From NCBI GenBank assembly GCA_013265495.1, contig MU058000.1, positions 434,001 through 498,000 on the forward strand: 64,000 bases of DNA, given 5' to 3'. Shown here piece after piece: positions 23,221 through 28,470 of the stretch (the first letter of the stretch is position 1; each line of letters begins with the position of its first letter). The stretch comes from Vicugna vicugna. Its lineage: Eukaryota. Position numbers and translations under genes: made by a program. The notes beneath the pieces are model-generated. The model had not been told where the DNA came from, did no database searches, and was given only the letters and a program-made list of their open reading frames with translations.

Positions 23221-25083
23221 GTTGTTAAAATGGCCATACTTGCAAAGCAATCTACAGATTTAGTGTGATCTCTATCACATTACCCAGGGCATTTTTCATA
23301 GAACTAGAACAAATAATCCTAAAACTTATATGGAATCACAAAAGAGCTAGAATTGCCAAAGCAATACTGAAGAAAAAGAACAAGACTGGAGGAATAACCC
23401 TCCCAGACTTGAGACAATACTCCACAGCAACAGTAACCCAAACAGTGTGGTACTGGCACAAAAACAGACATATGGATCAAAGGAACAGAAGAGAGTGTCC
23501 AGAAATAAACCCACACACTTAAGGTCAACTAATCTTTGACAATGGAGGCAAGAATACACAATGGAGAAAAGACAGCCTCTTCAGCAAGTGATGTTGAGAA
23601 AGCTGGACAGCTGCATGTAAATCAGTGAAGTTAGAATACTCCCTCACACCATACACAAAAATAAACTCAAAATGGCTGAAGGACCTAAACAAAAGACAAG
23701 ACACTATAAACCTGCCAGAAGAAAACATAGGCAAAACATTCTCTCAACACAAAACTTGGCAATGTTCTAGAGACGCCTACCCAGGCAGTAGAAATATAAG
23801 CAAAAATAAACAAATGGGAACTAATTAAATTTAAAAGCTTTTGCACAACAAAGGAAACCTATAAACATAACAAAAAGACAACCTAGGGAATGGGAGAAAA
23901 TATTTGCAAATGATGCGACTGACAAGGGCTTAATTTCCAGAATATATAAACAGCTCATAAAACTTAATAACAAAAACAAACAACCCAATACAAAAAAATG
24001 GGCAGAAAACTTAAAGAAGCATTTCTCCAATGAAGATATACAATTGGCCAATAGGCACATGAAAAAATGGATGAACATTGCTAATTATCAGAGAAATGCA
24101 AATCAAAACTACAGTGAGATACCCCAACACACCAGTCAGAATGGCCATCATTCAAAAGTCCACAGACGATAAATGCTGGAGAGGGTATGGAGAACAGGTA
24201 ACCCTCCTACACTGTTGGTGGGAATGGATTTTGGTGAAGCAGTTATGAAAAACAGTATGGAGATTCCTTAAAAAGCTAAAAATAGATTTAACCATATAAT
24301 CCAGCAATCCCACTCCTGGGTATATATATATCTGGAGGGAACTCTAATTTAAAAAGATACATGCACCCCTATGCATTCATAGCAGGACTATTTACCTTGG
24401 CCAAGACATGAAAACAAACTATATTTCCATTGACAGATGACTAGATAAAGAAGTTGTGGGATATATATATATTATATATATTTATATAATATATATATAG
24501 AATACTACTCAGCCATAAAAAAGAATAAAAAATACCATTTGCAGCAATATGGATGGAACTGGAGATGTCATACTAAGGAAGTAAGCCAGAAAGAAAGAAG
24601 AATACCATATGATATCACTTATATGTGGAATCTAAACAAAAAAAATGAAACAAATGAACTTATTTACAAAATAGAAGGCTGTGCTCTCTTGGGTAGCACA
24701 TATACTAAAATTGGAACTATACAGAGAAGATTAGCATGGCCCCTGTGCAAGGATGACACGCAAATTCATGAAGCATTCCGTATTTTTTTCAAGATTTGCA
24801 GATACTAACTAATATATATAAAATACATAAACAACAAGTTCGTACTATATAACACAGGGAACTATGTTCAATATCTTGTAGTACCCTATGATGAAAAAGA
24901 ATATGAAAAGGAACATACATATGTATATGTATGACTGAAACATCATGCTGTACACCAGAAACTAACACAACATTGTAAACTGACTATACTTCAATTTTTT
25001 TAAGAAATTCAGATACTGAACTGTTTCAACAACCTGATATTTGAGATGGCCTTTTCTTAAAGTACATACAATAAAACTTAAAA
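23221..25083 (+). mobile_element. Younger 5'-truncated L1 (end of ORF2 plus 3' UTR) with internal U6 copy and 3' transduction
   Basis: ORF2-like peptides ([54 protein letters not shown]), L1 3'UTR ending CTATACTTCAAT near 24995, A-tail, TSD AAAAATCAAT at 23211-23220 and 25084-25093. Confidence 0.9.
24681..24787 (+). pseudogene. RNU6: Full-length U6 snRNA retrocopy
   Basis: GTGCTCTCTTGGGTAGCACATATACTAAAATTGGAACTATACAGAGAAGATTAGCATGGCCCCTGTGCAAGGATGACACGCAAATTCATGAAGCATTCCGTATTTTT; about 8 substitutions against the mammalian U6 sequence as recalled, mostly at CpGs; upstream sequence is L1, not a U6 promoter. Confidence 0.95.
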
Positions 25084-25206
25084 AAAAATCAATCACTGTG
25101 ATTCAGTACGTTAACAAACTAAAAAAGAAAATGTTGACTCATCTCAATAGATGCAGAAAAAGCATTGGCAAAAAACTGATGTCTGTTCCTAATTAAAAAC
25201 TCTCAG

Positions 25207-26090
25207 TGCTCCCAGGATATGGAACTCACCTGGGCGGGCACCGCGGCTGGGCTTGGCACACAGGAACCATGCAAGAAGCCCTCATTGCAGAATACCCTTC
25301 GGTTCCACCTGTTGGTCAGAGCTGCCCCTGAGCATCTCAGAGCAGAACCTGAACTAACAAGTGGCAGCTCCTGGGCAGGTCTGCGACCCTGGGCTTCACG
25401 GTGCGCCGCCTCTCTCCGCCTGTTCTTCCAGAGGCTTCCAGCATGGCGGCCTCTGGCAAGACAGGGCGCAGGGCCCGCGATAAGATTCACCACAAGGCCA
25501 CCCACGACACCTCAGCCCAACCAGCCACCGGACCAGGGCTACAAGCAGCTACCGGGCCAGTGCTACAGCCACTGGCCAGACCAGCGCAAGCCCAGGCCCG
25601 GCTCCCTGCGCGGTGGCCTTCCGTTCCAGGTGGGCAGACGGAGCGCACCGGCTCTTACGCATGGGCTGCAACGCCGGGCGCGGGGGCGCTAATGCACCCA
25701 TCTCCCCGGCTGCCGGGACAAGAAGAAGATGCAGCCACCCCACCCACGCCTCCTCCCCCACCAGCCCCCAACCCCCAGCACCTGCAGCCAGCCATCCGCA
25801 GCAATGAAGATTTCAACAAGCTTCTGGAAGACGTGATTTTCCCCAGGGAGGCGTCGTGCCCAGCATCCAGCCTAAGCTGCTGATCAACAAGACCAGCACA
25901 CCCAGGTGGCAGAAGGTATCCACCAGCGGCAAGAAGTCCTCCCAGACCTCCAAGGAGTACGGAGGGAACCTGCTCCCCGCCACCAGCACCCAGTCCTCCC
26001 CTCCTCACCCCTCCCCCAACAAAGGCCCTTTAAACCCCTCACCAAAAGACCTTTCAGAATAAATGCATTATTTTTCCATGGGGAGGGGGG
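25207..26090 (+). pseudogene. Processed pseudogene of a diverged histone H2A.X-like gene (H2A-homologous part 25443-25960)
   Basis: Across frameshifts: MAASGKTGRRARDK (25443; cf. H2AX MSGRGKTGGKARAK), KPRPGSLRGGLPFQVGR (25588-25638), AHRLLRMGCNAGRGGANAPISPAA (from 25643), RDKKK (from 25714), PQHLQPAIRSNEDFNKLLEDVIF, QGGVVPSIQPKLLINKTS...SGKKSSQTSKEY (ends 25960; cf. GGKKATQASQEY). Stem-loop remnant AAAGGCCCTTTAAA at 26021, AATAAA 26058-26063, inserted at a TT/AAAA site in an old L1. Confidence 0.85.
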
Positions 26091-26429
26091 AGCCTCTAAG
26101 CAAATGAGAAATAAAAGGAAACTTTCTCAACCTAACACAAAGCATCTATGGAAACTATCGGTAACATCATATTTATTTCCTGATGAAAGAACGATTTCTC
26201 TCTTATGATTAGAAACAAGATGATATCTGCCCTTATTCTTCCTACTGAAAATTATACTGGAGTTTCTAGTCTGTGCAATCAGATAAGAAAAAGAAATGCA
26301 AAGCACCCAGATTAGAGAGGAAGAAGTAAAACTGTTTTCAAACAACACAACTCATTTAGGTAGGTAATCGAACAGAATCTACCAAACAGCTTTTAGAACT
26401 AACAAGTGAATTTAATGACATTGCAGCCT

Positions 26430-27255: not shown

Positions 27256-27879
27256 AGTATGTCTTTATTGGTCAGTCTAAAGAATTCATACATAATTTTA
27301 TTTTTTAACTTTTTATTTCTTCTTTTTATTGTGGAATAGTATTCCATTGTATGGCTGTATCGCTGGGTTTTGGTTTTTGTTTTTCATCCATTACCTAGTG
27401 GAAGGACATTTGAATTGTTTCCAGTTTGGGGAGATTATGAATAAGCCACTACAAACATTGAAATACACATATTTTAAGTGTACAGTTCAATGAATTTTGG
27501 CAAATGCATACATCCACGTATGGCCAGTCTAATTAAAATGTAGAAGAACATGTTTATAATCCCTGTGAGTTCTCGCCTGTCTTTTCCCAATCTCCTATAA
27601 CCATTGCTCTGATTTCCATCGCCATAGCTTTCCTTGTCCCAGAAGTTTATACAAATGAAAACATTATAGTATGTGAGGAGTTGATATTCCTTTTACCGCC
27701 CAAGAATTGAAGGCTTTAAAGAGGGAAATTGGCACAGTCTGATTTCTATTTTAAATTATCTTTTTGGCTACTGTGTGAAGAATGCTGAGTAGACGATAGT
27801 GTGCCACTTTAGTATTCTTTTTCTTCCCATCTTCCGGGGGAGGAAATGGCTCGTTAAAATTCCTGGGCAGACCGGAATT

Positions 27880-28470
27880 TACAGGTCGGCGTCAACCCGG
27901 TATCGCCGGGCTGGTTTCAGACTCCCATTCAAGGCACTCGAACTGTTTCTGCGTTCCCGGTTCCGCCCAGCAGGTGGCCCCAGAGCCCGGCTGCTGCCCT
28001 GCGCCTCCGAGTCGGCGCGCTGCCGCGGGAGCCCGACGCCGCCGGGCGACTCCTCGCGGCGATTCCGGCGCGTGTGGCGGCGCGCGCCCAGCGGTCTCGG
28101 TTTGCGCTGAAGTTGCGGAGCCGCAAGGATCCCCAAGAGTTGTAGCGCCTCGGCTTCGGGCGCACCTCGGGCCGGCGAGCCATGTGTGCCCGCCTCAGAC
28201 CCTCAGCCGAGGCGACCTGGGCCCGGAGGAGCTGAAGTTGTGTAGGACCCGCGGCCGCTGGAACTTTCTCTGGATAGAGGGTGCGTGCGGGCGCATCCCG
28301 TAGGCAGCGCTTTTAGGAGGCTGCCCGCGCGAAAAGGTGGCCCGTTGGGTTAAGAGACGAGGAAAGGAGAGGGCTTCCGAACTAGGCTTTGGGTTGAAGT
28401 AAGGGGAGGTTGGAAAGCAAAGGGGACCGGTGTTGAGCGGCGGGGAACAGACGGAGCAGGCTGCGTAGCT
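27880..28470. promoter_or_regulatory. CpG island upstream of TSHR
   Basis: Very high GC and CpG density (e.g. GGCGCGCTGCCGCGGGAGCCCGACGCCGCCGGGCG); CTCF-like CCAGCAGGTGGC at 27967-27978. Confidence 0.85.

Follow-up and report, generated by a model that had tools for sequence, protein, structure and literature searches.

Positions 25207-26092 of the analysed stretch (64,000 nucleotides of a Vicugna vicugna contig, hereafter the window) are very probably occupied by a chimeric processed pseudogene that derives from an H2AX paralogue; this parent would have been a once-functional histone gene that has since decayed. As it stands, the element is a chimeric processed pseudogene without present or foreseeable function.

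Layout of the window copy and its relatives

H2A.X-like pieces, ordered but frame-broken, were found in the three forward frames of the window (25443-26063), beginning at the ATG at 25443, an arrangement which the original prediction had described and which alignment bore out. The features of the element and its edges, all on the forward (+) strand, are:

25195..25206, +, putative target-site duplication, left copy (aaaaactctcag), within the host LINE-like repeat
25207..25442, +, 'leader' of ~235 nt, a piece of an unrelated dispersed repeat of low copy number, attached 5' of the histone-derived part
25439..25455, +, junction zone of 17 nt (CAGCATGGCGGCCTCTG), similar to the repeat family as well as to the beginning of the paralogue mRNA
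25443..25963, +, what is left of the coding sequence of the H2AX-derived paralogue, from the ATG at 25443 to the former stop, now GGA (25961-25963)
25518..25571, +, 24-nt (8-codon) tandem repeat, 2.2 copies (TRF score 73, 80% matches)
25708..25719, +, junction of a 52-nt deletion (between 25712 and 25713), with most of helix alpha2 (17 codons) gone
25729..25778, +, C-rich insertion of +32 nt (scored as 15+17) in place of TRIIP, from the alignment to H2AX
25964..26057, +, 3'UTR remnant containing one half of a histone stem-loop (26024-26034) and an HDE-like box (26040-26052)
26058..26063, +, AATAAA polyadenylation signal, in a block (TTCAGAATAAATGCATT) common to two other loci (on contigs C1192 and C8296)
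26080..26092, +, G-rich run of 13 nt (ggggaggggggag) where a polyA tail is expected, from direct reading
26093..26100, +, putative target-site duplication, right copy (cctctaag), beyond which the host repeat continues

Scored against the intact H2AX of the same genome, the N-tail of the window copy shows a net gain of 106 nt (~35 codons plus a frameshift), followed by +4 nt near 25636, the 52-nt loss, the 32-nt gain and -1 nt near 25841; the reading frame changes at least four times, and both this and the absence of ~17 alpha2 codons had been anticipated. The C-terminal end remains H2A.X-like (...SGKKSSQTSKEY at 25958-25960) and reads ..SQTSKEY before running through the lost stop, without the terminal SQ[E/D]-hydrophobic motif. 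The Pfam search recovered Histone_H2A_C (PF16211, 22.5 bits, cut-off 20) in the frame 25808-26059, and no match to the histone fold (PF00125, cut-off 26.4 bits) in any frame of the window.

The canonical H2AX of the vicugna genome is intact (143 aa; PF00125 Histone, 58.9 bits) and lies on contig C6892, ~3 kb from a Porphobil_deam (HMBS) match. Identity with the window copy rises from 72% for this gene to 75% for the locus on C8296 and 80% for that on C1192 (C1192:1759599-1760349), the nearest relative found (BLASTN E values against the family loci, 1e-33 to 1e-71). The alignment of C1192 with the H2AX locus spans -304 to +530 (~835 bp, both CCAAT boxes included). C1192 has lost the TATA box and has no polyA tail; judged by this alignment, it is a DNA-level duplicate of H2AX that includes ~300 bp of promoter. 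A 60-nt (20-codon) in-frame N-tail insertion and a set of tail substitutions are common to C1192 and the window copy, and all three copies differ jointly from canonical H2AX at 24 of 259 columns (block D), plus 8 of 54. Private changes in the 259 columns number 15, 17 and 22 (17 in the window copy), and the sites informative for the three groupings of the copies (11, 8 and 3) describe almost a star. Because the tree is so nearly star-like, our choice of C1192 as the source follows from its promoter and missing tail rather than from the tree; the parent could still be a source locus missing from the assembly.

The likeness to H2AX from the ATG through the C-terminus might suggest a plain retrocopy of the canonical gene that decayed neutrally in place. 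We give this reading almost no credence, as it is refuted by the 60-nt insertion, the 11-nt stem-loop deletion, the polyA-signal block and the derived columns, all common to two other loci; the earlier claim that simple decay of canonical H2AX does not account for the element agrees with these shared traits and with the greater identity to C1192.

Most of the remodelling belongs to the window copy itself. Its fold is offset from that of C1192 by exactly 48 nt, and the 24-nt repeat explains the extra N-tail; both this repeat and the C-rich insertion are absent from C1192 and C8296, where the alpha2 segment is still present. Hence, of the ~34 codons that the N-tail was said to have gained (~35 are present), only 20 come from the parent and the 24-nt repeats arose in the retrocopy. 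The retrocopy is likewise where the frameshifts and the C-rich insertion occurred, and where the stop and the alpha2 segment were lost. The segment is indeed rich in GC (0.63; CpG observed/expected 0.48), but of 32 H2AX CpGs in the well-aligned blocks only 7 survive, a share like that in the sister copies (8/34 and 6/33), so that its CpG richness is no more than relative. Among the private changes of its aligned blocks 13-14 are strong-to-weak and 6 weak-to-strong, like those of the sisters, and GC-biased gene conversion was on this ground rejected as the source of the high GC of the histone part.

The proposed switch of 3' processing signals was upheld. The 3' arm of the stem is deleted (11-13 nt) in all three family copies; the Rfam Histone3 stem-loop was matched at the canonical H2AX locus only (32.6 bits), with no Rfam match in the window copy. 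The AATAAA of the window copy recurs at C1192, where the homology to H2AX stops after the HDE and the signal sits in flanking DNA; its block has no match in the 20 kb around canonical H2AX. At C8296 a polyA run of ~33 nt starts ~20 nt past the AATAAA.

Retroposition and the origin of the leader

The host of the insertion is an old LINE-like element, multi-copy in the genome (40 copies scored of 292 first-look candidates, 66-88% identity), a better-kept copy of which matches RVT_1 weakly (19.6 bits, below the cut-off). Uninterrupted copies contain ...AAAAACACTCAAC directly followed by AAACCAGG... once, and this sequence appears on both sides of the insert, the flanks of which read aaaaactctcag and (ggag)cctctaag. 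The resulting target-site duplication (8-12 nt) is a soft call, its two copies disagreeing at 2 of 8-9 positions. An age bound on the insertion was sought in the host repeat and dropped, that repeat being too old; crudely, and not to be relied on, the retrocopy appears ~3 times older than the camelid split, as judged from its 17 private changes per 259 columns and the 7 residue differences per 61 codons between the camelid lineages.

No polyA tail was found at the 3' end of the window copy, where the G-rich run occupies its place. This, and the fact that C1192 is itself DNA-derived, would be in line with a DNA-level (segmental or ectopic) duplication of C1192 that bypassed RNA, which we nonetheless hold to be very improbable: the homology with C1192 spans only the ATG to ~16 nt past the AATAAA (~16-20 nt, near the A-run of the sister copy), neither the promoter (300 bp of homology) nor the downstream flank of C1192 was copied, and a short target duplication flanks the insert.

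The leader had been taken for a long 5'UTR. The 235-nt stretch exists, but it represents part of an unrelated dispersed repeat, 71-78% identical to C5635:38862, C2064:149937 and C10189:5026, whose family reaches up to ~2 kb (16 matches besides the query), with neither polyA tail nor terminal repeats seen in it. Beyond the junction the copies of this repeat run on into different sequence, and at the position of the leader C1192 and C8296 have an H2AX-type 5'UTR instead. Two unrelated sequences are in this way joined head to tail with like orientation, and a single pair of target duplications encloses both; leader and histone part would together make a chimeric retrocopy, with a putatively transcribed 5' partner.

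At the junction the repeat copies read ...CACAGCATGGGGCCTCTG... (L004) and ...CACAGCATCCGGGG... (L006), and the histone family CAGCATGGCGGGCTCTGGCAAG. The two parts might also have been joined by splicing, through a repeat exon attached to a cryptic acceptor (..YAG/CATG) upstream of the ATG in a chimeric mRNA that was later retrocopied. The histone part does begin right after the pre-ATG CAG of the family, behind a pyrimidine-rich tract, with acceptor forms at C1192 (CATAG/CATG), C8296 (GTGCAG/CGTG) and the canonical gene (GCGCAG/CATG), and the leader ends in TTCCAG. We consider this route unlikely, since no homologue of the leader was found within +-10 kb of C1192 nor elsewhere on that contig, since the repeat copies go on with CAGCATGG.GGCCTCTG, a similarity that passes the putative exon end as a switch at microhomology predicts, and since the third codon of the window copy, GCC, agrees with the repeat and not with the histone family.

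Camelid orthologues and selection on the parent

The Camelus orthologue of the retrocopy is EPY81483.1 (an ORF of 202 codons in Camelus ferus), which carries the annotation 'hypothetical protein'. The tail-repeat expansion predates the camelid split, since the same three 8-residue units occur in the orthologue P0121, and the 52-nt loss of alpha2 followed it in the vicugna lineage, since P0121 keeps the segment (LTAEISELAGNAAGDKKK); the C-rich insertion is there too (MQIPHPTPPPPTSPNS), at a slightly different length. The piece 'missing' from the Camelus retrocopy model need not have been deleted and may have been modelled as an intron.

The annotation of EPY81483.1 and a 146-codon ATG-started frame in the window could be read as signs that the window copy, or the C. 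ferus ORF, is itself a protein-coding gene (three RNA runs contain only 0.19 of the sequence words, which we counted as no evidence). This is hardly credible: between the camelid lineages a premature stop and at least three frame changes separate the reading frames, no Pfam domain was found in the ATG-frame ORF and the histone fold appears in no frame, and residues diverge as much as non-coding DNA. Among DNA runs, 15 contain at least 0.80 of the sequence words.

The parent corresponds to a Camelus cluster (P0124-P0131) that includes contiguous 224-aa ORFs, so that the closer paralogue with an intact ORF in relatives, on which the original prediction had counted, does exist. Its entries are XP_064334842.1 ('histone H2A, sperm') and XP_031303636.1 in C. 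dromedarius, XP_010948238.1 and XP_074202464.1 in C. bactrianus, EPY78004.1 ('histone H2A type 3') in C. ferus, and a further Camelus entry, KAB1251804.1 ('Histone H2AX'). These names are automatic, inconsistent and generic for H2A (RefSeq and GenBank, including 'histone H2A, sperm(-like)'). The literature search found no published study of this H2AX paralogue, and in that sense the variant is undescribed, as had been proposed, although the databases do annotate its Camelus orthologue. The best 120 of 4857 matches in a protein search with the Camelus parent consisted of its own cluster and of two-domain H2A models at ~300 bits; as such models hide single-domain relatives of intermediate score, the search is uninformative on non-camelid orthologues. 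The top matches of an earlier protein search were tandem-domain artefacts.

The frame of the parent is open through the histone fold in three Camelus species (184-185 codons; P0127: Pfam Histone 42.9 bits, H2A_C 62.2 bits), and no family copy is intact in the vicugna genome. Deletions of 2 nt and 26 nt, private to that genome, break the frame at C1192 and could be assembly errors; the remaining ORF scores 19.7 bits for PF00125 (below the 26.4 cut-off) and 62.9 bits for Histone_H2A_C. The C1192 locus matches the Camelus entries at 92-94% residue identity per frame piece, as well as in 48 of 51 upstream 'residues', and both carry the 20-codon N-tail insertion and a 1-nt C-terminal frameshift that has shifted the tail away. 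In Camelus, alpha1 shows radical changes (one a proline), and the 8-9 fold codons that C1192 has lost show heavy change (PHLHRGRC). Since every frame-breaking indel is private to one of the family copies, we infer an ancestor with an open 163-codon frame; its C-terminus would have read ..SSQTSEE(H/Y), the terminal SQEY being lost.

Residue differences between Camelus and vicugna amount to 11/163 for the parent, 3/51 for the upstream non-coding DNA read as protein and 9/119 for the retrocopy, which suggests neutral evolution of the parent from the divergence of the two camelid lineages onwards. The idea that the window copy derives from an H2A.X derivative located elsewhere thus finds its locus in C1192, but one whose frame is broken in vicugna and whose divergence equals that of non-coding DNA. 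We think it improbable that the parent is a tylopod-restricted, H2A.X-derived variant still functional in Old World camels, where the frame is open and the fold passes Pfam, and lost only in the vicugna lineage, of which the window copy would be a fossil. Such a variant would be marked by an N-tail longer by 20 residues, by polyadenylation of its mRNA and by a new proline/arginine-rich C-tail replacing SQEY.

Earlier in its history, the histone fold of the parent seems to have been under purifying selection. By parsimony on 3-4 sequences (with helices alpha1 to L1 represented in two copies at most), the stem branch from H2AX to the family ancestor shows 9 non-synonymous and 15 synonymous changes in the 83 codons of fold and docking domain, and 17 and 3 in the 40 codons of the tails (Fisher, p = 1.2e-4 for non-synonymous density and 0.002 for N:S). 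On the terminal branches (N:S 47:9 and 27:5) fold and tail densities are equal. The contrast outlasts the setting of all undetermined codons to non-synonymous (p still 0.006 and 0.017) and the removal of CpG transitions (tails 16/40, fold 9/83, p = 5e-4); given this persistence, and the similar CpG density of C-tail and fold (10.7 and 11.6 per 100 nt), CpG hypermutability was rejected as its cause. Since the split of the copies, 9 of 80 fold codons have changed in the parent as against 38 of 113 in the two retrocopies (p = 3e-4), a comparison that is weakened by the heavy change, in Camelus, of the codons deleted from C1192 (12/83 codons of the Camelus parent fold by hand count), and in which alignment error, if present, would inflate the retrocopy counts.

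The main competitor, less probable but to be taken seriously, is that the duplicate was never a working histone: it would have kept the H2AX promoter, been transcribed in the germline and left retrocopies, and the contrast between fold and tails would be noise or mutational heterogeneity. The whole-gene dN/dS from H2AX to the ancestor (0.50) is what neutrality predicts, as the H2AX protein itself is unchanging, which leaves only the fold-versus-tail contrast to argue for selection. The lost TATA box at C1192, the neutral-like divergence between camelid lineages, the radical alpha1 changes including the Camelus proline, and the small sample (three DNA copies) point the same way. A parent that never functioned accounts poorly, however, for a stem on which non-synonymous density is ~4 times lower in fold and docking domain than in the tails, with no such difference on the terminal branches, nor for the resistance of this contrast to CpG removal and worst-case codon treatment at equal CpG density. 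No frame-breaking lesion is common to the copies; the absence of disabling lesions on the stem was dropped as evidence in its own right, only ~2-3 being expected given the branch lengths. On balance, these codon counts suggest that the fold of the parent was once constrained.

Proposed course of events and comparison with known systems

An H2AX segment of ~835 bp, with promoter, coding sequence, stem-loop and HDE, was copied as DNA to the C1192 locus, where the paralogue acquired the 20-codon N-tail insertion and many tail substitutions and lost the 3' stem arm. Its fold would have remained under purifying selection for a time, and the codon counts indicate that it probably worked as a histone. 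To judge by the anatomy of the copies, its polyadenylated mRNA was presumably reverse-transcribed at least twice by LINE machinery: C8296 would be the copy with a polyA tail, and the window copy, 5'-truncated at the ATG, would have entered an old LINE. To the latter 235 nt of an unrelated RNA that contained the repeat would have been joined, most likely by a template switch at the 17-nt microhomology. After the insertion and before the camelid split, the copy expanded the 24-nt tail repeat, gained the C-rich insertion and lost its stop; in the vicugna lineage alone, 52 nt of alpha2 were then lost and further frameshifts gained. The parent, in turn, decayed, with the 1-nt C-terminal frameshift in both lineages and the 2-nt and 26-nt deletions in vicugna only. 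Its past germline transcription we infer only from the two retrocopies that it left.

To our knowledge, the H2A.X protein is nearly invariant among mammals. The histone nomenclature paper (PMC9526256) gives only one H2A.X gene for human and for mouse. The present case would place in a mammalian lineage an H2AX that was duplicated with its promoter and re-wired from stem-loop processing to polyadenylation. It would also offer a small and datable example of how a histone variant is born and dies, in which the fold was kept while the tails were rewritten, and decay followed, with retrocopies scattered along the way. At the level of annotation, descent from an H2AX paralogue accounts for a spurious 'hypothetical protein' in Camelus and for the three automatic gene names there that disagree with one another.

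Like canonical H2A.X, from which it descends, the family has the CCAAT boxes, the coding order, the GKK..Q..EY layout of the C-terminus and the HDE box; unlike it, the family has a 20-codon N-tail insertion, a rewritten C-tail and a polyA signal, and no stem-loop. The short H2A variants (H2A.B, H2A.L, H2A.P and H2A.Q), presented in the relevant passages of PMC5880237 as germline and fast-evolving, offer a second comparison: as far as those passages go, the parent resembles them as a lineage-restricted H2A derivative with fast tails, a fold kept for a time and later pseudogenisation in some lineages, but it derives from H2A.X and not from the short-H2A ancestor, is longer, not shorter, than H2A, and is not known to lie on the X chromosome.

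As a retrocopy, the element resembles LINE-1 processed pseudogenes in the general traits that the consulted sections of the literature give for them: it is promoterless, 5'-truncated, ends just past the polyA signal and is flanked by a short target duplication within an older repeat. It differs in having a G-rich run for a polyA tail, and in that its histone parent first had to become polyadenylated. Bipartite chimeric retrocopies formed by LINE-1 template switching, such as the U6-L1 chimeras, are described in portions of PMC4476161 and bioRxiv 10.1101/2025.02.02.635956. With the chimeras treated there the window copy shares a different RNA as 5' partner, joined head to tail at microhomology; its own partner is a piece of a dispersed repeat of low copy number, and not, as in the U6-L1 chimeras, a small nuclear RNA.

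The window element and its closest relatives

The window (C1207:434001-498000 within the 2.03-Gb assembly) holds an island of GC 0.6-0.7 at 25207-26092, surrounded by AT-rich DNA, and this element is a chimeric processed pseudogene. Reading of the sequence confirmed the layout of the original prediction, including the histone stem-loop, of which only half is left:

25443, plus strand: start codon ATG (read from sequence)
As far as SGKKSSQTSKEY, plus strand: H2A.X-like pieces in three frames (read from sequence)
26058-26063, plus strand: AATAAA (read from sequence)

The H2A C-terminal domain was the only Pfam match (22.5 bits, frame 25808-26059), and the histone fold was matched in none of the copy's frames. 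Of the words sampled from 25207-26090, about one fifth occurred in three runs of RNA-seq, two of them carrying the label reproductive-system metagenome; this may reflect a short or related stretch only. A second GC-rich island (27800-28400), in which 200-nt windows reach GC 0.745, lies ~1.7 kb downstream of the insert. A full-length U6 snRNA copy (24681-24787, plus strand; 109.7 bits to Rfam RF00026 over model positions 1-105) lies ~420 nt upstream in the same AT-rich repeat landscape and may be a further LINE-mediated (chimeric) insertion.

The window copy was 80% identical to C1192:1759599-1760349 (an H2AX-derived paralogue), 75% to a sister copy on C8296 (1138750-1139105) and 72% to canonical H2AX. 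The latter is intact on C6892 (143 aa), has an Rfam Histone3 match (32.6 bits) at its 3' end and has, ~3 kb away, a match to an exon of porphobilinogen deaminase (HMBS), the gene that adjoins H2AX in other mammals. As compared with canonical H2AX, all three family copies (window copy, C1192 and C8296) carry a 60-nt in-frame N-tail insertion (..HKATHNTSA..), PRWQK in place of ATVGPK, an 11-13-nt deletion that removed the 3' stem-loop arm, and the block TTCAGAATAAATGCATT directly 3' of the histone box (HDE). Shared-derived states occupied 24 of the 259 columns of the best-aligned block and 8 of the 54 columns of the 5' block; together with the identities (80% vs 72%), these characters bear out the proposal that the parent was a gene other than canonical H2AX. 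Private changes per 259 columns amounted to 15 (C1192), 17 (window copy) and 22 (C8296), and the sites grouping two copies against the third were 11, 8 and 3, so that the tree is near-star. A six-frame search of the assembly with the Camelus retrocopy protein recovered 23 matches (the three family copies, canonical H2AX and ordinary H2A genes) and no further family members.

Parent locus, sister copy and decay

The paralogue on C1192 aligned to the H2AX locus over 835 bp, starting 304 nt 5' of the ATG and ending shortly after the HDE, with no other alignment between the two loci within 20 kb; its promoter retains both CCAAT boxes, but not the TATA box. Considering that the homology includes the promoter, that a polyA tail is absent and that unique DNA continues 3' of the AATAAA, the locus is a DNA-level duplicate that acquired its polyA signal from the new flank (H2AX normally gives rise to both stem-loop and polyadenylated transcripts). 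The stretch just 3' of the HDE that includes the AATAAA (L002:1777-1866) matches C9598:1868959-1869058 (75%, E 3e-5), and thus the adopted signal may stem from a repeat at the landing site. Within the assembly, C1192 is the only candidate source of both retrocopies, and its N-tail insertion, missing 3' stem arm and AATAAA agree with the remodelled, polyadenylated H2AX derivative that had been predicted to exist elsewhere. As assembled, its frame is broken by deletions of 2, 26 and 1 nt, each private among the three family copies.

C8296:1138750-1139105, minus strand: sister retrocopy of the H2AX paralogue (L003/L017)

This copy has a run of ~33 A about 20 nt 3' of the AATAAA common to the family. 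GTG replaces its ATG, a large internal deletion extends from the N-tail to alpha2, and CpG obs/exp is 0.29.

The extent of remodelling ascribed to the parent was nevertheless overstated, as several features of the window copy differ from C1192: two extra 24-nt units (TRF 25518-25571) and a stop changed from TGA to GGA, both common to Camelus; a 32-nt C-rich insertion (25729-25778), slightly different in length in Camelus; and the apparent lineage-private losses of 52 nt (25712/13) and of a single nt (near 25841). A further gain of 4 nt near 25636 is unpolarised by Camelus, whose model is without that stretch. The window copy keeps 7 of the 32 H2AX CpGs in aligned blocks (similarly to its sister copies), most of its private changes replaced a strong base pair by a weak one, and its sequence change is ordinary decay.

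The leader and its insertion

The leader (25207-25442) matched three other loci at 71-78%, members of a low-copy family whose copies reach ~2 kb (16 matches besides the query), and had no homologue within 10 kb of C1192. It is not the long leader of the parent mRNA that was originally proposed: C1192 and C8296 have an H2AX-type 5'UTR in its place. The LINE-like host repeat, which we take to be L1 ORF2, is old and multi-copy, and a better-preserved copy gave a weak reverse-transcriptase match, below the cut-off. Since host-repeat copies elsewhere are continuous across the insertion point, and a target sequence of 8-12 nt stands on both sides of the insert, leader and histone part appear to have been inserted as one unit. 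Their join falls within CAGCATGGCGGCCTCTG (25439-25455), which is similar to both partners. The main alternative for its source is a spliced chimeric mRNA; the most economical reading would be that the reverse transcriptase switched templates at this microhomology.

Where a polyA tail would be expected, the window copy has a 13-nt G-rich run (ggggaggggggag, within 26080-26100), and the right target copy reads g/g/a/g/c where the left has aaaac. The pattern resembles a short stretch in which A was replaced by G; outside the run, no weak-to-strong bias was seen in the remaining window copy.

Camelus orthologues and probable past constraint

A profile-free search with the ATG-frame ORF of the window copy against 1.84 billion representative proteins gave three matches at E <= 0.001, of which one was real: EPY81483.1 (Camelus ferus, 202 aa, annotated 'hypothetical protein'). 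This protein is the orthologue of the window copy, with which it has in common the lost stop (..KEYGGNLLP..), three 8-residue tail units and the C-rich insertion. Of 119 residues that can be compared 9 differ, and it retains LTAEISELAGNAAGDKKK, absent from the window copy. Its reading frames are other than those of the window copy and, as the frame is not common to the Vicugna genome copy, the gene model is probably an annotation artefact.

A word search of proteins with the parent N-tail recovered one cluster of eight members and no candidate beyond this Camelus cluster, which comprises RefSeq and GenBank models (C. dromedarius, C. bactrianus, C. ferus) and two continuous ORFs of 224 aa found in read assemblies. 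Models P0125-P0130 bear four automatic names for one locus ('histone H2A, sperm(-like)', 'H2A-like', 'H2A type 3', 'Histone H2AX') and span 165-236 aa, with promoter DNA translated in the 236-aa ones; the long models match upstream non-coding DNA of C1192 at 48 of 51 'residues'. The cluster represents the C1192 orthologues, i.e. a closer paralogue that shares the tail insertion, as the proposed check had sought, with a frame that stays open across the fold (42.9 bits to Pfam Histone). It has the 1-nt C-terminal frameshift of C1192, without the 2-nt and 26-nt deletions. Judged by the divergence, the window's genome would come from a camelid lineage separate from Camelus. Both the retrocopy and this frameshift, being present in Camelus, are older than the split of the two lineages.

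Each frame-breaking indel is private to one family copy, and hence the common ancestor is inferred to have had an open 163-codon frame.

Changes on the stem branch from H2AX to the family ancestor
Region: non-synonymous; synonymous; determined codons
Fold plus docking (codons 21-118): 9; 15; 83
Tails: 17; 3; 40

The contrast between fold and tails had a Fisher p of 1.2e-4 for non-synonymous density and 0.002 for N:S; the terminal branches, used as internal neutral control, had N:S of 47:9 (fold) and 27:5 (tails) at equal density. It persisted (p 0.006 and 0.017) with all 20 undetermined codons counted as non-synonymous. CpG content was ruled out as its cause by similar CpG densities (10.7 per 100 nt in the C-tail, 11.6 in the fold) and by non-CpG changes alone (p 5e-4). 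After the copies separated, the retrocopies changed at 38 of 113 fold codons and the parent at 9 of 80 (p 3e-4), with no such difference in the tails. Several observations count against past function: the overall dN/dS is 0.50, as neutrality would give if the protein of one partner stays fixed; coverage from alpha1 to L1 is thin; the ~8 fold codons missing from C1192 have changed heavily in Camelus; and between camelid lineages the parent showed no lower divergence (11 of 163 residues) than did the retrocopy (9 of 119) or the non-coding DNA upstream (3 of 51). On balance, the parent reads as constrained for a time, with constraint lost before the crown camelid split, and we lean slightly towards its having once been functional.

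Full-text literature searches found no paper that deals with a duplicated or retrocopied H2AX, whether in camelids or in other mammals. The relevant part of a nomenclature paper gives one H2AX each for human and mouse (PMC9526256), and H2A.X serves only as comparator in the corresponding part of a paper on short H2A variants (PMC5880237). Chimeric retrocopies, as a class, are treated in PMC4476161 and bioRxiv 10.1101/2025.02.02.635956.
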